A stretch of DNA of 63,723 nt, filler included, from Chrysochromulina tobinii (Eukaryota), in the NCBI GenBank assembly GCA_001275005.1. It is 8 parts of 8 records of this genome, joined end to end, with 100 filler letters (N's around TTAATTAATTAA, not from the genome) between each part and the next. Parts side by side here need not be neighbours in the genome. Positions count along the whole stretch, not along the records: positions 14,242 to 20,776 come from JWZX01000176.1; 7 more parts are not named here. The stretch is one strand, 5' to 3'. Of this stretch, positions 4,978 through 58,235 are shown piece by piece. Below the pieces are notes generated by a model. It searched no databases, had not been told where the DNA came from, and was given only the letters and a program-made list of their open reading frames with translations. How positions within the stretch are numbered: the first letter of the stretch is position 1; each line of letters opens with the position of its first letter. Made by a program: the position numbers and the translations under genes.

Positions 4978-7900
4978 ATGTGGGGGGATAGCAGCTGCCG
5001 TGTTAGTACCGCCCCTGCATCGGGCTCAACAGCTTCCGGAGAGATGATAACCCATGCGCACCTCAGTGCTCTGGAGATGCGCACGCAGAAACGCTTGGGA
5101 GAGATGCACGAGACTCTCAACAAAATCCTGCAGCAGATGCCCGAAATGCTCGGGCCCTCGCGCAAGCCGACCCCCACGTCAGCCCACGGTGCCTCTCTGG
5201 ACTCAGTGATCGAGGAGGCGAAGGAGGATGCAGCCGCGCGGATGCGAAAGCACGGCACGCTGACGGTAAACATCATGAAGGCGAATAACCTGATCAAGGC
5301 GGACCTGTTGGGGCTGTCCGATCCGTACGTGCACATTGGGCTGCCTGGGCTACCTGGGCAGCCCACGATGCGCACCCGGACGATCAGGAGTAACCTCAAT
5401 CCAGAGTGGGATGAAAGGATCGAGTTCGAGGGAGTGCTCGAGCAGTTCGTTTCAAGCACTTGCAGGCTCGACTTGTTTGACCAAGACTTCCGAATGTCGG
5501 ATGCGATGAGGCACGGGAGTTCAAAGCAGGACATTCTCTCCGACGACAAGCTGGGTTGGCTCGAGTTCAGCCTGAGCGAGCTGGGGACGAAAGATTCGAT
5601 CCTCAAGAACGACTGCGTGCTTTCCGGCGTCCCACACGGCACCATCACCTTCGAAGTCTCGTGGTCGCCAGATTCGAACGCCGGCGTCAACACGGTAAGA
5701 GGACCCCCCTGTCGCCCGCGGAGCCGCGTCACGCAGTCACCTGGTCCCTCCCAGCACGCTCCCCTTTCGACCCCTTCGCCCTTGCCCCGTCGACGCAACT
5801 CCTCGGCACCCCCCGCAGATTCGCTCGCTGGTCGAAAAGGACAGAGATGTGAAATTCCAATTGCGCAACTTGCGCCGTGCCATGAACGCCCAAGCCGAGA
5901 AAGATCGCCGAAAGGCTGCGCGTGGGATGCGCCGACAGATGACTCTGAATCGGTCACCTACGCAGTCTATACACGGCTCACCTCCCGGAGGCGGGCTGCA
6001 AAAGCAGTCCACCAAAATGTGCGCTTCGCCCCGGCCGGCGTCGTCGCCCCTTCCCCCCCCCTCTACAGTCCGCGCTCCGTGTGCGTTCACTCCTTGGCTC
6101 ACGTTTTGTTCCACGCGCCTTGGCCCGCGCTGCCAGTTCGATCAGTACGTCCATCTCGGACGAATCCGACATGCGCTGGTCCAACAAGGTGTGCAGGTCC
6201 CTCTGTGGACCCATGATCGACCCGAACTCCCGCTTCCGCACCTCGTGGAACATATGTCTCGCATTCTTCATCATCTACTGCGGCATCGCCGTTCCGTTTG
6301 AGATCGCCTTCGAGGTGGACATGGTCAACGCCATGTGCGGCGTCGGCGAGGAGCGTTTGCTGCGTGAGGACTGCCCCTCGTACCTCCAGTGGTTCTGGCT
6401 CAACTTTCTGGTGGACTTATGGTTCATCTCGGACATCGTCATAAACTTCCGCACTGGCTGTGCGCGTGCACCCCAGAGCCACCCGCTCCCCACCCGCTCG
6501 CCACCTGCTCGCCACCCGCCGCCACCCGCCGCTGCCGCTGCATCGATGCCTCGCCCACTCTTCCTTCCCCTCGCATACAAGCGCTCACTACGGCGCCCCC
6601 CCGCCTCGCCCACTCCTCGCTTACGCCCCACTCTCACGCTTCGATGTGCTCCGCACACCCCACCCTCAGATATGCAAGAAGGGCGCCTGGTGAAGGACGA
6701 TTGGTTGGTCGCGAAGGCGTACTTGCGAAGCAGCAGCTTTTTCATGGATGTCCTTGGCTCGTTCCCGCTCAACATTGTGCTGATGATCGTCACGCCCGAC
6801 AACCCTTACGGCAACGTCGACGTAGCAGCCACAGATGACGCCGCGGGGAGCGCGGCGCGCGCCAATCGATTGCTGCGGCTGTTGCGGCTCACAAAGCTGG
6901 CCAAGCTCGCGCGCATGGCCAAGCTCAGAAAGTACTTGGCAAGCTTTGAGGAGTTCATCAATCCAGGCGTGCTCGCGGTCACGAGCTTGTCTGCAGCGGC
7001 CCTCCTGTGCTGTCACTGGTTCGGATGCCTCTGGTGGCTCGTCTCGGACCTCGAAATCTCTGAACCCGACCTCATGCACCAATGGTACGCTGGCGTGGAA
7101 AATACGTGGCACCCGCCCGTCTGGCTGAAGAACGAGGAGAATCTCGGGGCCAAGTATGCCTTCTCATTCTTTTGGGGCGCCGGGATGGTCACCTCGACGA
7201 TCCCCTTCGACATCTTGCCATTGACTCCCTTCGAGTCGATCGCAACGACCTTCATGATGTTCGTGGGCCTGCTGCTGAACGCGTACGTGATCTCATCGCT
7301 TACATCAGCTCTCGCCTCGATGAACTCGCAGAAGGAGCTCGCGCGCAAGGAATTAGGCACCGTGAAAACCTTTCTCGTCATGAAGGGTGTGCCGACGGAC
7401 CTGCGCTCACGCATCCTCGAGTACTTCGAGTACCGGCTGACCTCGTCTCAGGGCCTCGCCAAATCCATCAACATGGAAGAGATGCCAGCGAACTTGCATT
7501 TGCAGCTCTTGATCGCCATGTGCAAGACGCTCGCTGCCAAGTGCCCGCTCTTCCGAGATCTGTCCGAGCCTTGCGTGGTGACGCTCATGTCGCGCCTGAA
7601 ACCGTGCGTCTTCGTGCCGGGCCAGGTCATCGTCTTCGAGGGCCACGCACTCGAGAATGTGTACTTCATCAACAGGGGACTCGTCGAGCTCCGCGTGAAC
7701 ACTCTGATCGTAGGGACGCGGCGCGACAGCGATAACTTTGGCGTGGATGACTTCCTGACTGCGTACCTATCCAAGGAGGTGCCTCTCGTCATGGCCACGG
7801 CCCGAGGGATGAGTTACTGTGACGTGTACTCCCTTTCGCACGAGGTGCTTCTCGATGCCGTCGAGAACGACAAGCACTACCAAGTGAAGTCCGCCGCCCG

Positions 7901-17301: not shown

Positions 17302-20300
17302 ATGGCGGGGTTGCTTGTGGCCTCTCTCCTCTGCGTGAGCGGCGGGTGGAGTGGTGATCGGCCCGGCCGCTCTCAGCGCTGGCGAGGCACCAGCGGCGGT
17401 GGCGGTGGCGGCGGCAGCAGCAGCAGCAGCAGTCACGGCGACGGCAGCAGCGGCAGCGGCCTCCTGTGGGACCCATCCTCCAACATCTGCCTGCTGACGA
17501 TCATGACGCAAGAGCGGAGGGCATCGTTGCATCGGCTGCTCGCCACATGGGACGGCTACATCTCCATCGCGTTGCTCGTGGACGACTATGACGCTGCTGT
17601 GGCAGAGGGCTTGGGCGTCCTTCGCTACCGTGGCAAGTATCCGCCCGCAACGGAGCGAATCACGCTCTCGATTGTCGAGGATAAAGGCTACCGCGCACCG
17701 CTCAACCGCTTCCCGTACAATGTGCTGCGGAATACCGCCCTGCGCGGGTGCACCGCGGACTACGTGCTCGCCGCCGACGTCGACTTTGTTCCTTTCCCGC
17801 CGAGGCCATCGGCCAACCTGCGCCGTAGCCTGCGCGAGCTCGACGTGCGCGAAGGCGCGAGCAACGTGCTCGTGCTCGCGGCGTTCGAGGCGATGGACCA
17901 CGCGGTGGGCCCCTCCGACGCCCAGGACAGCGCTCTGCACGCCCGAAGGCAAGCCCACGCCACGCTCGGCGCTGCGATGCCCGAGGGCGATCAGTCGCAG
18001 TTGCATGACAAGGGGTTTGTGGGGGCGGGCAGCCGCAGCGGAATAGCAGCGGCGGCGCCGGGACGGCGGCTCAGTGCCCTCGAAAGCAACAGCAGTAGTC
18101 CCAGTGGCCTCGGCCCGAGCGAGGACCCGTATCTCGACAAGGCCAAGCTGCTCTCCAGCGTGCGAGCCAACACTATCGTCGGATTTGCGTCGCGTGAGTA
18201 CGACGCGGGCCACCGGTGCGACCACGTGCACACCTTCCTCCAAGCGACCGCGCCGTACGAGGTGCAGTATGAGTTTGGATGCGAGCCGTACACGGTGGTC
18301 CCCCGGTGAGCACGCTGCCCTCCTGACGACACGCGTCCTGACGAGCGCGCGCCCTCCTGACGAAACGCGTCCTGACGAGCGCGCCCCCCCTTCCCCTGCA
18401 GCGGCATGGCGCATGAGTACGAGGAACGCTTCGTAGGCTATGGAAAGGACCGCGTGAGCTGGAACTACGAGCTCGCGGCGAAGCGGGTGCGCTTCTGGGT
18501 GCCACCCGACGCATTCCTCGTCCACTTCGAGACGCACGATCTCGAGGAGGCCAGCGCAGGTGGCGGTGGCGGCGACGATGCCGCCGCCGCCGGTGGCGGC
18601 GGCGGTAGCAGCGGTAGCGGCGGCACCGGCGGCACTGGCGGCTCCGGCAGCCGTGTTCGCCCGAAGAAGCAGTATGGCCACCACCCTACTGACTGGATGC
18701 TCGGGGAGTCGTGCTGGCCGTCCTTCCGCGATCGTGTGCAGGCGCAGTACAACTTTAGCGTGTACACGTGCCATCAGACGATGATCGACGGGCTGCACCG
18801 CGGTCGCTTCGAGGCATGCGCGTCCGAGACGGAGCGCGTGTGCGTGCGTCCCTTTTGCACGCCGCGGACCACGGTGCTCGCCCACCCGCTGCCCCCAACT
18901 GCCGGGCGCCCTCCTCGTGTCAGCGCCTACCCGGCACGCAACTTGACGTCCTACCCGGATGAGCTCACCACGACGCTCGCTGTCAGTACGCTCGCCGGCG
19001 GCGCTCGAGCCGAGATGACGAAACCCGAGATGACGTACCGGTACCCGGGGCCGCGCCTGGTGATGCTTGGCTGCGAGGGCTGTGGGATCCCGGAACTTTG
19101 GCGGATCCTCGTCGCGGCCCGTGCCCCCGCTGGCAGGCTGCAGGTCGCACTGACGAACCCTGGAGAGCCGTCGTGGCGCGACCGGCAAGTGCACTTTTTC
19201 GACCACGAGAACAGGTTCGCCCTCGGGTCGACTTGGTACATGCAACGATGGCCACGCGCCATGTCCCCTACCGCCGCCGCCGCCGCCGCCGCCGTCTCCT
19301 CCACCGTCTCCTCCACCGTCTCCGCGGCCGCCGCCGAGCGCCCCATGGGGATGGACGGCTCGGGCACGTACATACACTCGCCCGACGCCGCGTTGCGCCT
19401 GCCAGCGACGCTCTCCGCCACCACGACGGCGCTACTGCTCGTCCTGCGCGACCCCACTGCGCGGGCGGTGCGTCGGCTGCGCGAGCTCATGCGCCGAGGC
19501 AAGCAGTCAATGTCCGACGCGGCGGGCGATAGGGTGGACCAACGCGCCGTCGTGGGCGAGGGGGGGCTCGCCGCTAAGCTCCTTTTCGAAACCGATGCGC
19601 TCTCCACGTGCTTTGAGGCTGCGATGGACTCAGCGATGGACGCTAAGCCGCTCCCGTCGCCGCCACCGCCCTCGTCTGTCGACCAGACGCAGCTTGGCCA
19701 GGGGCCGCAGGCTATTCACACTCCCGTTCACAGGCAGCTTGGCCAGGGGCAACAGGCCCCGCGACGGCGGCGTGGACGCGGCGGCACCGGCATGGCGCCG
19801 GCGACGGAGCAGGCGGCGGCGGCGGCAGCGTGGCGACGGCGGCTGAATAGCCCGCAGCAGCAGCCTGTGAACGGGAGTGTGAATGACCAGCAGCAGCAGC
19901 TGCTGCCGCAGGCCTCTCCCGCAAGAGGCCCAGCGGCGCCAACCGGGCGTACACTGACAGCGAAGGCCTGGGCACGCTGCGTGGCGACCGTATGTGGATC
20001 CCGTGCATGCATGAGCGGTACGGGCGTCGATCACCCCTCGTGCATGCAAGGGCTCACCACGACGCCCCTTCCACTTCCCCACAGGTACGGGCGTCTATCA
20101 CCCCCAGCTGGCCGTATGGGCAAGGGAGGCGGGCCACTTCCGCTGGATGGTGCTGCCAGGAGAAGCGCTGCGCACGCACGCGTCCGATGGCCTCGCGCAC
20201 ATCTTCGCCTCGCTCGAGCTGCCGCCGCCCCCCGGGATGCACTGCCTCGCCGCGCAGCTGCAGGCATGGCTCACTGCCAGCCGCGACAAGACCAACGAGA

Positions 20301-20714
20301 GCAGTCGGGTGGCGCCCGAGACGACGCTCGATCCCAATCTGGTCGATCCAGATCTGATCGGGCTGAGCTCGACCGTCTCGCGTCTGCTCAAGGCCTTTTT
20401 CGCGCGGTACAATGCGCTGCTCAAAGGAACCCTTTAGGAACCCTTGGACCTGCCTTGCATGCACGCGCTCACCACGGCGTCCTGTTCCCCACAGGTACAA
20501 TGCGCCGCTTCGCCCGCTCGTGCACGCCCTCGACCCCGCGTCCGACCCCCTCTGGCAGAGCGTCCTCTGGGTCCCGGCGACGAGCGCGGCGATTGGGAAT
20601 GCCGCGGGCGCCGTCGGCCTTGACGAACTCCAGCGGGCGGCCGAAGCGCTGCGAACCGAGCTCGCCAAGGGTGCCGTCGACGGCGTCCGCACCGCCGAGG
20701 GCGAAAACATGGAG

Positions 20715-20761
<47 letters not shown>

Positions 20762-20776
20762 AAGCGGCGGCGGCGG
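17302..20776 (+). CDS. GT49 (LARGE/B4GAT1-type glucuronyltransferase) fused to a sulfotransferase-like domain, 3'-partial; exons 17302-18305, 18402-20017, 20085-20406, 20495->20776
   Basis: GT49 motifs: WDGYISIALL, FPYNVLRNTAL, DVDF, EPYTV, YEERFVGYGKDRVS, AFLVH. Sulfotransferase motifs: VHFFD, WYMQRWP, DGSGTY, LVLRDPTARA, GVYHPQL. N-terminal signal/anchor. Confidence 0.8.
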
Positions 20777-40505: not shown

Positions 40506-42085
40506 ATGTCCAACGACTTGTTGCAGTACTCTGAGTGCCACTCGCAGAGCGGTGGCCACGTGCGCTTCTCTCCAGACGGCCGCCTCATCGCGACCGCCGC
40601 GGGCTACCGCCTCGTGATCCGCGACGTGGACACGCTGCAAATCGTGCAGCTCTATGGGTGCGTAGATGCCATTGAGGATGTGGAGTGGAGCTTCGACTCC
40701 GAGTACGTGCTGTGCAGCATACCCAAACGGGGTGTCGCGCAGGTCTGGAGCGTGAGCAACAAAGAGTGGCACTGCAAGATCGATGAGGGACCTGTGGGCC
40801 TCGCACACGCACGCTTCAGCCCAGACGGCCGGCACGTGCTCGCCACGGCCGACTTCCGACTGCGCATCACCATTTGGTCGCTGTGCGATCGCTCCGTCTA
40901 CTACATCCGATTCCCGAAGCACGTGGGAGCCGGCATCGACTTCACACGCGACGGCACGGTGATGGCGCTCGCGGAGCGCACGGATGCACGCGACTCCGTG
41001 GGCCTCTTCCTGACCGATGGCTGGAAGCCGCTGCGCACGTTCCCGGTGGCGTCGACCGACCTGGAGGACCTCAAGTGGGCGCCGGGCGGCGAAGTGCTCT
41101 GCATCGTAGACACAATTCTCCAGTACCAGGTGCTTCTCTACTCCGCCGAGGGGCAGCTGCTGCAGACGTATAGGCCGTATGAGCACGCGCTTGGCGTAAA
41201 GACGTTTGAATGGCACCCCCTCGGGCACCTACTCGCAATTGGCTCGTACGACGAGCGCGTGCGTGTGCTCAACTCGCTCACGTGGCAGCGGCTCGCTGAG
41301 TGCTCTCACCCCACACAGGTGCATCCCTCCTTCTCGGAGGACGTAACCCTTGCCCGATCCCTGACCCTAACCCTAACCCTGACCCTGGTTCCCTAAACCG
41401 AACCTGAATCCGAACCCTGACCCGAAACCCGACCCCGACCCTGACGCTGGCCCACCCTACGCAGGTGCACCACTCCTTCTCTGAGGACGGTGTTGCGTGG
41501 GTCGAACCCGAGGCGGAAGGAGGGGGGTACGCGGCGCGCCGGTTGCCGTTGAGCGTGCCTGCGCTGCGCCCCAACCCAGACAAGGCCAAACCGATGATGG
41601 GCGTAGGCCTGCTCAAGTGGTCTGCCGGCGGCCGCTTCCTCTTCACGCGTAACGACAACATGCCGCGTGCCCTCTGGGTATGGGACGGCGCCACGCTGCT
41701 GCTCCACTCGGTGCTGCTGCAGCAAGGGCACGTGCGCGCAGCCGCGTGGCATCCGAAGCTCCAGTTGCTGGCGCTGTGCACTGGCGCGTCCAAGGTGTAC
41801 ATGTGGTCGCCGCGTGGCTGCCGCACGGCTCCGCTGCCCGCTGCGCACGAGCTGAGCATCACTCAGATCGAGTGGAATGCAAACGGCGACGCACTGATCC
41901 TTCTCGACGCGGACCGCTTCTGCGTGTGCTTCGTCTCAATCCCAGCCGAGCCGGACGAAGACGCCACCGACGCCGACGAAACTCCGCCGCCGCTCACTGC
42001 GGACGAGCTGGAGATGCTGAGAAAGATAGCGGCGGCCGAGCCGAAGACGCCTGCAAGGGGCGCCGAGGCCATCGAGATCGCGTGA
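40506..42085 (+). CDS. WRAP73: WD-repeat protein WRAP73/WDR8; exons 40506-41318, 41465-42085
   Basis: YRLVIRDVDTLQIVQL, EWHCKIDEGPVGL, ADFRLRITIWSL, YEHALGVK, IGSYDERVRVLN, TRNDNMPRALWVWD. Confidence 0.9.
41344..41445. repeat. Degenerate telomere-like (CCCTAA/CCCTGA/CCCGAA)n tract inside the WRAP73 intron
   Basis: ccctgaccctaaccctaaccctgaccc followed by ccgaa/cctga variants. Confidence 0.85.
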
Positions 42086-53731: not shown

Positions 53732-54830
53732 AGGCGGGGGTGGAGGCGGGGGTGGAGTGCCGTCAGTGGGCGGCATGCCGAGCGGCATGCCGAGCGTGCC
53801 TGTGGCCGATGGGATGGACGTACTGGTGCCGGTCCCAGTACCAGTACCGGTGGCGGAGCCCCCCGAGCCCCCAATGGCCACAGCCACCCAACATGAGTCG
53901 TGTACGTGCCTCCATGTGACTTGATACTTGCGTGTCATCTCCTCGTGGGCGCGCAGCTCGCCGCCCTTGTCGGCCTTGACGACCTCGACGTCGTCATAAT
54001 AGACCTAATGAGGGAGGCCATCAGAGGTGCATCAGAGGTCATCAGAGGTCCATCAGAGGTCCATCAGAGGCCATCAAGAAGCGCACTCAGAGGCCATCAG
54101 AGGTCCATCAGAGGTCCATCAGGGGCCATCATAGGTCCATCAGAGGCCATCAGCAGCGCACCACTGTCCCTGGCACGATGATGCCCTGCGCAAAGCACCA
54201 GTCGAGGCACTGCACGGCGGAGAGGTACAGGTCGACGTCGATGTCGATAAGCAGCGCCGGCTGCATGCGCCGCTCGTTGACGAGACTCTGTGTGAGGACA
54301 TCCAAGAAGAAGCCCTTGACCAGCCGCGTCTTCGCTGCATGCGACGGTCCGAGGAAGTCCTCAATCCGGCGGCGGACCTCGCCAAAGGTGTAGACGCCAA
54401 ACTGGTCGGCAGCGGAGAAGCCCCCTGGCTTCCACTCGTCGCCTTCGAGAGCCACGCCGGGTGCCTCCTCTGGAAGCCCCTCGAAGCTGTCGAAGCCCCA
54501 CATCTGGCCTGTCGCAACCTTGAGCGATGCGAACCGATCGAGCCAAAATTTGATGGACGCGCCAGTGTACACACCAAAGGTGTACAGGTCGCGGCCCGTG
54601 CAGTCCGTTTGGTCCTTCAGGTCCGCCATGAGGACCTGCAGGGCGCGCCGGCGATTACGAGACGCCTCTCCCTCCATCGGCATGAACGTGCGACGGAACG
54701 CCATGCCTCGGCCCTTGCCGATCCCGTAGCTGGCGCGATCGGTCGCCCACGTCCCTTGGCGCAGCTGATCCTCATCCTCGGTGGCGTCCCGGGACTCAGG
54801 CTCAGGCGGCGGCCGCGGTCCCGCCGCCAT
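53732..54830 (-). CDS. TylF/MycF-like SAM-dependent sugar O-methyltransferase, 3'-partial; exons 54830-54162, 54004-<53732
   Basis: TFGVYTGAS, WGFDSFEGLP, LVKGFF, IDIDVDLYLS, and spliced PGTV/VYYDD. Confidence 0.8.
54017..54152. repeat. 10-11-bp tandem repeat (CCATCAGAGG(T)) filling the TylF-gene intron
   Basis: About 11 imperfect copies read directly. Confidence 0.9.
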
Positions 54831-54968: not shown

Positions 54969-57900
54969 ATGTCGAGTGGGCTCGTGGAGTGGTTAAACCT
55001 CGTCGCTGCGGACCAGGGCGATGCCGCGGAGCATTGCGCACTTGGATACATGCACCGTGACGGACGTGGTGTGGCCCAAGATGATAAGCAGGCTGCGGCG
55101 CTGTTCAAGCTCGCTGCGGAACAGGGCGATGCCGCGGCGCAGTGCGCACTTGGAGCCATGCACCTTGAGGGACGCGGTGTGGCCCAAGATGATAAGCGGG
55201 CGGCAGAGCTGTTCAAGCTCGCTGCGGACCAGGGCGATGCCATGGCGCAGTGCGCACTTGGACGCATGCACCATTACGGACGCGGTGTGGCCCAAGATGA
55301 TAAGCGGGCTGCCGTGCTGTACAAGCTCGCTGCGGACCAGGGCGATGCTCCGGCGCAGGGCGCGCTTGGAGCCATGCACCTTGAGGGACGCGGTGTGGCC
55401 CAAGATGATAAGCGGGCTGCAGAGCTGTTGAAGCTCGCTGCAGACCAGGGCGATGCCGCAGCGCAGTGCTCACTTGGAGTCCTGCACCGTGAGGGACGCG
55501 GTGTGGCCCAAGATGATAAGCGGGCTGCAGAGCTGTACAAGCTCGCTGCGGATCAGGGCCATGCCGCGGCGCAGTGCTCACTTGGAGCCATGTACCGTGC
55601 CGGACGCGGTGTGGCCCAAGATGATAAGCGGGCGGCAGAGCTGTTCAAGCTAGCTGCGGACCAGGGCTATGCCGTGGCGCAGTACTCACTTGGACGCATG
55701 CACCTTGAGGGACGCGGTGTGGCCCAAGACGATAAGCGGGCCGCTGAGCTGTACAAGCTCGCTTCGGACCAGGGCGTTGCCGCAGCGCAGTGCTCACTTG
55801 GAGACATGCACCTTGAGGGACGCGGTGTGGCCCAAGATGATAAGCGGGCGGCAGAGCTGTTCAAGCTCGCTGCGGACCAGGGCCATGCCGCGGCGCAGTG
55901 CGGACTTGGAGCCATGCACCGTGAGGGACTCGGTGTGGCCCAAGACGATAAGCGGGCGGCAGAGCTGTACAAGCTCGCTGCGGACCAGGGCGTTGCCGCA
56001 GCGCAGTGCTCACTTGGAGACATGCACCGTGAGGGACGCGGTGTGGCCCAAGATGATAAGCGGGCGGCAGAGCTGTTCAAGCTTGCTGCGGACCAGGGCT
56101 ATGCCGTGGCGCAGTGCTCACTTGGAGACATGCACCGTGAGGGACGCGGTGTGGCCCAAGATGATAAGCGGGCCGCGGCGCTGTTCAAGCTCGCTGCGGA
56201 CCAGGGCGATGCTCCGGCGCAGTGCTTACTTGGACACATGCACCATGACGGACGCGGTGTGGCCCAAGATGATAAGCGGGCCACAGAGCTGTTCAAGCTC
56301 GCTGCGGACCAGGGCCATGCCGCGGCGCAGTGCGGACTTGGAGCCATGCACCATGACGGACGCGGTGTGGCCCAAGATGATAAGCGGGCGGCAGAGCTGT
56401 TCAAGCTTGCTGCGGACCAGGGCTATGCCGTGGCGCAGTGCTCACTTGGACACATGCACCATGACGGACGCGGTGTGGCCCAAGATGATAAGCGGGCTGC
56501 GGCGCTTTACAAGCTTGCTGCGGACCAGGGCGATGCCGCGGCTCAGTGCTCACTTGGAGACATGCACCTTGAGGGACGCGGTGTGGCCCAAGATGACAAG
56601 CGGGCGGCCGTGTTGTACAAGCTCGCTGCGGACCAAGGCGATGCCGCGGCGCAGTGCTCACTTGGACACATGCACCATGACGGACGCGGTGTGGCCCAAG
56701 ATGATAAGCGGGCTGCGGCGCTTTACAAGCTCGCTGCGGACCAGGGCCAAGCCGCGGCGCAGTGCTTACTTGGACACATGCACCGTGAGGGACGCGGTGT
56801 GGCCCAAGATGATAAGCGGGCGGCTGTGCTGTACAAGCTCGCTGCGGACCAGGGCGATGCCGCGGCGCAGTGCTCACTTGGACACATGCACCGTGAGGGA
56901 CGCGGTGTGGCCCAAGATGATAAGCGGGCCGCAGAGCTTTACAAGCTCGCTGCGGACCAGGGCGATGCCTTGGCGCAGTGCTCACTTGGACACATGCACC
57001 GTGAGGGACGCGGTGTGGCCCAAGATGATAAGCAGGCTGCAGAGCTGTACAAGCTTGCTGCGGACCAGGGCGATGCCGCGGCGCAGTGCTCACTTGGAGA
57101 CATGCACCTTGAGGGACGCAGTGTGGCCCAAGATGATAAGCGGGCGGCAGAGCTGTTCAAGCTTGCTGCCGACCAGGGCGATGCCGTGGCGCAGCGCCAG
57201 CTTGGACTCACTACGACCCAGCACATCTCCTCATCATGCGCGGCAGCAGCGCCCAGTGCAGGTGTCCTGTCCGTCGTGGCTTGCGGCGCTCGAGGCGGCC
57301 TCTCGCGCGAGGACGAGCAGGCACGCGCCGACGCGATGATGGCACTCCTGATCGCTGAAGAGGAAGCGAGAGCCGAAGCGGTGGCCGTAAAGGCGTCCAA
57401 GAAGGCGAAGAAGAAGGCGAAGAAGGGTAGAGCGGCGACCACAGCCGCAGGCGAGGCGGGCACCGGCTTGTCGGCGTCGCAAATAGAGCCGACGGAAGCG
57501 GAGTTGGTGGCAGAAGAGAAGATCGAGGAGCCTGCGGCAGAGGAAGTGGCGATGGCGGCAACAGCACCAGCATCGGAGGCCGTTGAGGCTGAGGAGGTCG
57601 TGGAGGCGACAGCTGCGGCAGAGGCGGCCGTAGCGGAGGCAGCAGACGCGGAGATGGCGGCGGCTGCGGCTGCTGAGCAGGCGGCAAAGGAGGCCGAGAA
57701 GGCGTCGGCACGGGCAGCAGCGCACGAGGCCGCCATGGCGGAGGCCGCGCGGGCAGCCAGGACGCAGGCGGAGAGGGCGGAGGCGGAGAGGGCGGAGGCG
57801 GAGAGGGCGGCGGCGGAAAGGGCGGAGGCGGAGAGGGCGGCGGCCCTGGCCGTGGCAGAGAGCGCTGGCCGCGGCGGGCGAGGGGGGCGAGGGGGGCGTG

Positions 57901-58235
57901 GAGGGCTTGGAGGGCGTGGTCCGACTACCGTGCATTCATTGCCCCCTGCCCCTGCGCCACCATCGGCCCCAGCACCGGCTGAAGGCTTGATGGCAGCGCT
58001 TAGGCCTCTGACGCTCGCCGACGTGGGTAACTTCACCGGCCGTGTGCACGACGAGGCGCCCGAGTCGACCATCGGTGGCCAGACCACGTGCATCGTGTGC
58101 ATGGTGGGGCCCAAGTCGCACCTTGCGGTGCCGTGCGGCCATCAGCTCGCGTGCGAGCGCTGCACGGCCAACATGAAGCTTTGCCCGTACTGTCGCACGC
58201 CCGTCCAGCTTTGGGTGATGCAACGGTTGGTGTAG
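54969..58235 (+). CDS. Sel1-repeat (20 x 36 aa) protein with coiled/Ala-Glu linker, RGG box and C-terminal C3HC4 RING finger
   Basis: 20 copies of LAADQGxAxAQCxLGxMHxxGRGVAQDDKRAAxLxK, then CIVCMVGPKSHLAVPCGHQLACERCTANMKLCPYCR. Intronless. Confidence 0.9.
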   Translation: MSSGLVEWLNLVAADQGDAAEHCALGYMHRDGRGVAQDDKQAAALFKLAAEQGDAAAQCALGAMHLEGRGVAQDDKRAAELFKLAADQGDAMAQCALGRMHHYGRGVAQDDKRAAVLYKLAADQGDAPAQGALGAMHLEGRGVAQDDKRAAELLKLAADQGDAAAQCSLGVLHREGRGVAQDDKRAAELYKLAADQGHAAAQCSLGAMYRAGRGVAQDDKRAAELFKLAADQGYAVAQYSLGRMHLEGRGVAQDDKRAAELYKLASDQGVAAAQCSLGDMHLEGRGVAQDDKRAAELFKLAADQGHAAAQCGLGAMHREGLGVAQDDKRAAELYKLAADQGVAAAQCSLGDMHREGRGVAQDDKRAAELFKLAADQGYAVAQCSLGDMHREGRGVAQDDKRAAALFKLAADQGDAPAQCLLGHMHHDGRGVAQDDKRATELFKLAADQGHAAAQCGLGAMHHDGRGVAQDDKRAAELFKLAADQGYAVAQCSLGHMHHDGRGVAQDDKRAAALYKLAADQGDAAAQCSLGDMHLEGRGVAQDDKRAAVLYKLAADQGDAAAQCSLGHMHHDGRGVAQDDKRAAALYKLAADQGQAAAQCLLGHMHREGRGVAQDDKRAAVLYKLAADQGDAAAQCSLGHMHREGRGVAQDDKRAAELYKLAADQGDALAQCSLGHMHREGRGVAQDDKQAAELYKLAADQGDAAAQCSLGDMHLEGRSVAQDDKRAAELFKLAADQGDAVAQRQLGLTTTQHISSSCAAAAPSAGVLSVVACGARGGLSREDEQARADAMMALLIAEEEARAEAVAVKASKKAKKKAKKGRAATTAAGEAGTGLSASQIEPTEAELVAEEKIEEPAAEEVAMAATAPASEAVEAEEVVEATAAAEAAVAEAADAEMAAAAAAEQAAKEAEKASARAAAHEAAMAEAARAARTQAERAEAERAEAERAAAERAEAERAAALAVAESAGRGGRGGRGGRGGLGGRGPTTVHSLPPAPAPPSAPAPAEGLMAALRPLTLADVGNFTGRVHDEAPESTIGGQTTCIVCMVGPKSHLAVPCGHQLACERCTANMKLCPYCRTPVQLWVMQRLV
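55002..57207 (+). repeat. 108-bp coding tandem array, ~20 units
   Basis: Near-invariant ggacgcggtgtggcccaagatgataagcggg core every 108 bp. Confidence 0.95.

Follow-up and report, generated by a model that had tools for sequence, protein, structure and literature searches.

The freshwater haptophyte Chrysochromulina tobinii carries a dispersed family of introner-like introns that are flanked by long duplications of variable length and occupy sites polymorphic for intron presence, a combination that points to a new form of intron gain. We consider it somewhat probable that these introns form when a staggered cut of 10-50 bases is filled in by copying the 3′ half of an intron already present elsewhere. 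Several observations lie behind this proposal: the introns share a 23-nt core that leads into a pyrimidine tail and CAG, their duplications are long and their ends ragged, they are present in some gene copies and absent from others, and the flank of one site has been copied into another intron. Two members of the family lie in one gene of the window, the whole 63,723-nt stretch of DNA that was analyzed. Proteins of the window share 90% clusters with a C. tobinii phosphoglucomutase and a C. parva protein, which places the lineage in the tobinii/parva group of haptophytes.

The features of the two introns are collected in Table 1. A sequence-only reading of the window had reported a duplication at each of them, and both are as it described: the copies agree at 20 of 21 positions at intron 1 and at 15 of 16 at intron 2, and reading frame and homology support both segments as GT-AG introns. 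In each case the 5′ copy begins one base upstream of the GT. The frame supported by homologues is kept only when both segments are removed; retention of intron 2 introduces a stop and retention of intron 1 shifts the frame. Comparison with the homologues places the duplication mismatch in the intron copy at both introns, with the exon copies encoding Y and APL, as the homologues do, and the intron copies encoding D and ALL. The core pattern TGCATGCANGNGCTCACCACG has two exact matches in the window plus one with three mismatches at 6572, where 0.06 matches are expected, and three or more matches occur in none of 100 shuffles. The lone mismatch in the intron 1 copy also completes an 8-bp inverted repeat with the end of the core (20022-20029 and 20060-20067). 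No conserved fold is found in intron 1 (z -2.64, a value due to pairing of its duplication with the core end), in intron 2 (z 0.57) or in the cores alone (z -0.45 and -0.30).

Table 1. Coordinates of the two family introns, their host gene and related sites in the window
Feature	Position	Strand	Remarks
Host gene, up to the assembly gap	17302-20776	+	glycosyltransferase 49 (PF13896) domain in 5′ part
Intron 1	20018-20084	+	67 nt, GT..CCCCACAG, phase 1; supported by frame, continuous homologues and one RNA-contig skip
Intron 1, 5′ duplication copy	20017-20037	+	21 nt, 1 mismatch; provides GT donor
Intron 1, family core	20042-20064	+	23 nt, with CTCAC branch-point-like motif (putative branch role)
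Intron 1, pyrimidine tail	20065-20084	+	CCCCACAG acceptor at end
Intron 1, 3′ duplication copy	20084-20104	+	final intron base plus exon start
Exon separating introns 1 and 2	20085-20406	+	supported by frame and homologues
Intron 2	20407-20494	+	88 nt, GT-AG, phase 2; supported by frame and homology; in-frame stop if retained
Intron 2, 5′ duplication copy	20406-20421	+	16 nt, 1 mismatch; provides GT donor
Intron 2, 5′ linker	20422-20456	+	internal 10-nt repeat; ends in GACCTGCCTT extension
Intron 2, family core	20457-20479	+	23 nt
Intron 2, pyrimidine tail	20480-20494	+	CCCCACAG acceptor at end
Intron 2, 3′ duplication copy	20494-20509	+	final intron base plus exon start
Degenerate third core copy	6572-6592	+	
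Predicted intron, same geometry, telomere-like cargo	41319-41464	+	25-nt duplication, 3 mismatches; after ORF at 40506

A HMMER search finds 11 homologues, among which P0196 looks unrelated; a separate homologue search with the middle exon returned no matches. The spliced product aligns with the homologues with no gap at the junctions: P0120, P0194 and P0201 are continuous across both junctions, and P0195 and P0197-P0199 span junction 1 alone. The cluster of P0120 comprises contigs of up to 7.8 kb and one transcriptome-derived member. Introns at the same positions in distant orthologues had been named by the sequence-only reading as evidence against insertion. The three continuous proteins agree with insertion, whereas the distant homologue P0200, as judged from its protein only, appears to have an unrelated intron of 73 nt where intron 2 lies, which counts against a simple gain there. 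In the close relative P0191, the 3′ part of the middle exon is followed by the intron 1 core and then by the exon start again, an arrangement that represents either a long duplication or an assembly artefact.

RNA evidence for splicing extends to intron 1, where a 306-nt contig of run X18 skips exactly the 67 nt of the intron with GT..AG ends, having 97 nt on its short side and one other letter. The X18 RNA is environmental, so an intron-free allele would look identical to splicing, and the skip in this single contig could also stem from such an allele or from template switching at the repeat. Intron 2 is bridged in none of the six RNA runs, and X15, X16, X17, X19 and X20 bridge neither intron. 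The segment 19689-19733 (45 nt in frame, with a 17-nt repeat and GC..AG ends) was considered as a further intron and rejected, as an X15 contig crosses it without a skip.

Neither of the other two refuting outcomes named by the sequence-only reading is borne out: intron 1 shows a skip, and the core is not confined to the host gene. Searching with a pattern that ignored the duplication and required the whole core, which biases the 5′ boundary, returns 148 loci from 3 of the 64 parts of a metagenome collection, for an estimate of about 3,600 metagenome stretches with the core in a C. tobinii/parva-like alga. Viral contigs contribute one match, L149, a core copy at a contig end that is possibly host DNA. 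Together these 149 loci provide 193 distinct contexts. The summed contig depth over the core bin in DNA run X1 is about 480 times the single-copy depth (21,325 versus 44.7), a rough hint of several hundred copies. Many similar copies at unrelated gene positions are a trait of introners in the broad sense, and the family has it. A Pfam scan of 75 exon pairs, derived from 135 frame pairs at 78 sites, finds seven pairs that match one family on both sides, four of which abut in the profile (in ornithine decarboxylase, ferrochelatase and UBA1); the rest are uninformative.

Long duplications accompany most of these copies. A flanking repeat score of at least 15 is reached by 120 of the 187 copies with enough flank, versus 6 of 399 cross-pairs. 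The pyrimidine tail and acceptor are present in 139 copies (102 of them ending in CCCCACAG), and 101 of these have a repeat anchored at the exon start, compared with 0 of 150 in the null set. Setting aside nine redundant or non-final sites leaves 130 distinct acceptor copies, of which 116 are followed by an exon that starts with GT (108) or GC (8). A non-tandem duplication of the downstream exon start is found in 90 of the 130, with a median of 28 nt and a range of 10-51 nt, and the remaining 40 have no scored duplication. This bears out the earlier claim that introns are generated by a family of insertions, each bringing the acceptor and drawing the donor from a long duplication; the duplications are longer and more variable than the 16-21 nt then proposed. 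Intron length itself falls between 67 and 94 nt (5-95%), and duplication length anticorrelates with insert length (rho -0.61). The two copies are identical in 24 of the 90 pairs, and mean divergence is 5.8%.

It is hardly credible that the family reflects an assembly artefact or merely the species' ordinary branch-point and acceptor consensus. The CTCAC motif in the core does resemble a branch point, but an intron predicted at about 18306-18401 of the same host gene lacks the core; the copies of the repeat have diverged, and DNA runs X1 and X4 span the locus with no skip and no differences.

Copies with no acceptor suggest which properties of the family may arise by selection. Duplications, with a median of 24 nt, flank 29 of the 42 such copies; the tails are of uneven length, leaving 0-47 nt from core to repeat. 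Just 2 of these 29 duplications start with GT, which argues that the donor is selected rather than targeted. Long duplications thus look intrinsic to the process; GT, AG, strand and length seem instead to result from selection. Adjacent copies lie on the same strand in 116 pairs and on opposite strands in 14, several of which look like chance short matches, and some antisense copies retain the duplication.

A MITE-type DNA transposon, as in described algal introners, would share the splice logic of the Symbiodinium and Polarella classes, carrying the 3′ splice site and co-opting the 5′ one. Such an origin is nonetheless very unlikely. Duplications of 10-51 nt in place of a fixed 3-8 nt largely refute it, no terminal inverted repeats were seen by eye in the 193 aligned contexts, and both ends of the element are ragged instead of fixed. 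The same observations uphold the view of the sequence-only reading that the duplications speak against DDE transposition.

Presence/absence differences are clearest in ornithine decarboxylase (ODC). Among 47 close ODC ORF calls, which are database entries and not independent samples, the element occupies one site in 13, 19 are continuous there and 15 do not cover it. Over 340 aa, the element-bearing P0107 shows no difference from C. tobinii P0070, in which the element is absent, and the outgroups P0007-P0010 (70-75% identity) are continuous at the site. The contigs that bear the continuous ODC ORFs measure 7-29 kb, more than a message would; some of these ORFs may be transcript assemblies or paralogues. 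The ODC homologues L075 and L099 have one element intron in common, and L075 has two further duplication-flanked introns that L099 lacks; in the one that belongs to the second family, the copy carries L075's own exon states. Sequence comparison indicates recent gain at the ODC element site and at the sites that distinguish L075 from L099. Further ODC sites differ in intron presence when P0005, P0105, P0075, P0080, P0099 and P0108 are compared with L099 and L075. Elsewhere, one whole tandem intron unit distinguishes L043 from L090, and within the stretch aligned the differences between L084 and L148 are confined to the element.

These comparisons also bear on the possibility that older introns have been rewritten, with the 5′ part taken from the downstream exon (e.g. 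by abortive cDNA-templated repair) and the 3′ ends homogenized by conversion, so that no new positions arise. Rewriting would accommodate the intron that P0200 seems to have at the intron 2 site, and it would fit one ODC site at which two different cargo sequences are found (L099 versus P0005 and P0105), a pattern that may equally point to parallel gain or replacement. It would also suit the ODC site common to L075 and L099, where each 5′ copy matches its own exon, and the duplications found at 46 of 596 other YAG-GT sites. We nevertheless regard rewriting as quite unlikely: old introns have no need of the GT or GC that follows 116 of the 130 acceptor copies, the ODC outgroups and near-identical gene copies lack the intron, and acceptor-less copies bear the same duplications.

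Similarity along the whole intron, another introner trait, is absent: copies are similar over about 40-55 nt only, and roughly a third of each intron, in its 5′ part, is locus-specific, so that whole-intron similarity searches are likely to miss the family; this suggests that the class with long duplications is undercounted elsewhere. The 5′ linkers, of 16-53 nt, recur between unrelated genes as several subfamilies, and the GACCTGCCTT extension of the intron 2 linker is common to copies in unrelated genes. Partial, nested and head-to-tail cores are common, and many units include host flank. One intron of L077 includes about 24 nt of exon sequence belonging to the L076 site, which lies at a distance of 1.9 kb, and this shows that another intron was copied together with its host flank. 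At L026, the 5′ copy of one element matches the exon that follows a second element 1.2 kb downstream, which suggests a later insertion or a duplication between elements.

Core variants give some indication of local copying. Minor variants are in common in 14 of 79 same-contig pairs versus 676 of 11,464 cross-contig pairs (permutation p 0.0003), in a comparison whose pairs are not independent and include strain structure. The core variant differs in 65 of 89 same-contig pairs, and a test of all variants is not significant (p 0.21).

Other cargo sequences show the geometry of the core family. A second cargo, which ends in CTCATCAG, is flanked by duplications (median 27 nt) at 10 of its 34 sites, against 1 of 480 in the comparison. 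This cargo consists of 10-nt tandem repeats (in L075, L034, L065, L011 and others), which are also found as 5′ linkers in introns of the main family; the window has related repeats on its minus strand at about 54000-54150. The predicted intron at 41319-41464 suggests that telomeric sequence may have been patched in with the same geometry. A long ORF made of repeats of about 108 nt occupies 54969-58232 of the window.

Long variable duplications and 5′ truncation are hallmarks of non-LTR elements. A SINE-like or Penelope-type short retroelement, spread from a few master copies by a LINE or Penelope endonuclease and reverse transcriptase and happening to end in an acceptor, is accordingly a possible source, if a rather improbable one. 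Both hallmarks are found here, the truncation by a pattern biased to whole-core copies, and the 5′ extensions fall into subfamilies, with L133 and L142 having in common a 53-nt head-to-tail unit. One core variant is dominant (71 of 168), and 5′ truncation and partial tandems are described for Penelope-like elements (PMC8557442). Against a retroelement, the 3′ ends of acceptor-less copies are ragged, even though 102 of 139 acceptor copies end in CCCCACAG, no poly(A) or fixed tail is apparent, and the masked all-versus-all matches listed contain no long common body. Seven of the 149 loci, chosen mostly for long extensions, have no Rfam match over the element (E<=10), which gives no sign of a tRNA-, 7SL- or 5S-derived head; a resemblance of the element to antisense tRNA finds no Rfam support in these seven loci and was set aside. 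Host exon sequence has moreover travelled with the core, and other cargo shows the same geometry.

Patching of staggered cuts from existing introns would proceed as follows. Its target-insert-target geometry would call for cuts spaced by 10-50 nt, or for slippage to the same effect. The two strands would be cut at this distance, and a freed 3′ end would use a short match of a few bases to prime on another copy. The primed end would copy about 40-55 nt and rejoin, giving target, insert and target in order. To persist within coding sequence, an insertion would need to be in sense orientation, to reach an AG, to have a duplicated target that starts with GT or GC and to make up a total of at least about 65 nt; splicing would then restore the message exactly. 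Any copy could probably act as a template, with nearby copies preferred, and the family would thereby grow without a master transposon. The repeats would also permit exact loss, and tandem gain of whole introns by slippage.

Target-primed reverse transcription typically leaves long duplications of variable length. Since the cargo families correspond to the 3′ ends of introns and the duplications are of that kind, we lean slightly toward a template of excised intron RNA, with a reverse transcriptase acting in trans, over DNA-templated end joining. DNA end joining would account just as well for the ragged ends and the template jumps. Polymerase-theta-type templated insertion would show microhomology junctions, local templates and template jumps; a local bias and nested partial cores are observed, and microhomology at the junctions is inseparable from splice-site preference. 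The constancy of the core across many copies is explained more easily by a master element than by spread from copy to copy. A chain reaction independent of transposons, in which the 3′ halves of ordinary excised introns are reverse-transcribed into staggered breaks, the long target duplication provides the donor and the new introns become templates in turn, is possible but doubtful. If it were true, intron families would amplify and segregate within one species.

The origin of new spliceosomal introns has long been in question. Most introners described so far are short DNA transposons that leave small footprints of fixed size, and the repair-derived gains of Daphnia mostly have no known source; the C. 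tobinii system joins the two, with recognizable source families and the long footprint of a staggered cut. Each intron has its own clock in the comparison of intron copy with exon copy, and the introns segregate among near-identical gene copies in a culturable alga, which makes gain, loss, template choice and splicing directly measurable. We found no description of the C. tobinii core family in the literature searched, which was mostly open-access and included parts of the 2022 and 2025 survey supplements. In the portions available, the 2025 introner survey lists C. tobinii with 0 introner families (Gozashti et al., PMC12130899), the C. tobin genome paper mentions introns once (PMC4580454) and an introner review speaks only of short duplications (PMC11282704).

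Introner classes 4/5 and 6/8/10 of Symbiodinium and Polarella glacialis have fixed duplications of 3-8 nt and defined ends (bioRxiv 10.1101/2020.10.14.339549). Like the C. tobinii family, they carry the 3′ splice site, take the 5′ one from the duplicated target and leave message length unchanged; unlike them, this family has duplications of 10-51 nt, ragged ends and a locus-specific third. The introner figured for a marine Chrysochromulina by Gozashti et al. 2022 has 4-bp duplications, carries the 5′ splice site and co-opts the 3′ one (bioRxiv 10.1101/2022.06.06.494994; PMC9860276). Short repeated introns are thus found in the same genus, but the figured family has the opposite polarity. Among introners classed as non-LTR, several co-opt the 5′ site and carry the 3′ one, and the 14 non-LTR rows of the dataset have duplications of 2-11 nt or none (PMC12130899); in contrast to these and to Penelope-like elements, no retroelement homology was found here. 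In Daphnia pulex, neointrons at staggered breaks have junction repeats of 4-12 bp, and most of the inserts have no known source (PMC4202315). Both systems have new introns that are polymorphic and bounded by junction repeats, with parallel gains at a single site and secondary insertions within new introns, but the repeats are about three times longer in C. tobinii and the inserts come from recognizable families. For the sister introns of Hypoxylon, propagation from excised intron RNA at DNA breaks has been proposed (PMC8469720). An existing intron serves as the repair filler in that proposal as in ours; whereas Hypoxylon would involve blunt breaks and whole, symmetric introns, in C. tobinii only the 3′ half would be copied and the donor supplied by the long duplication.
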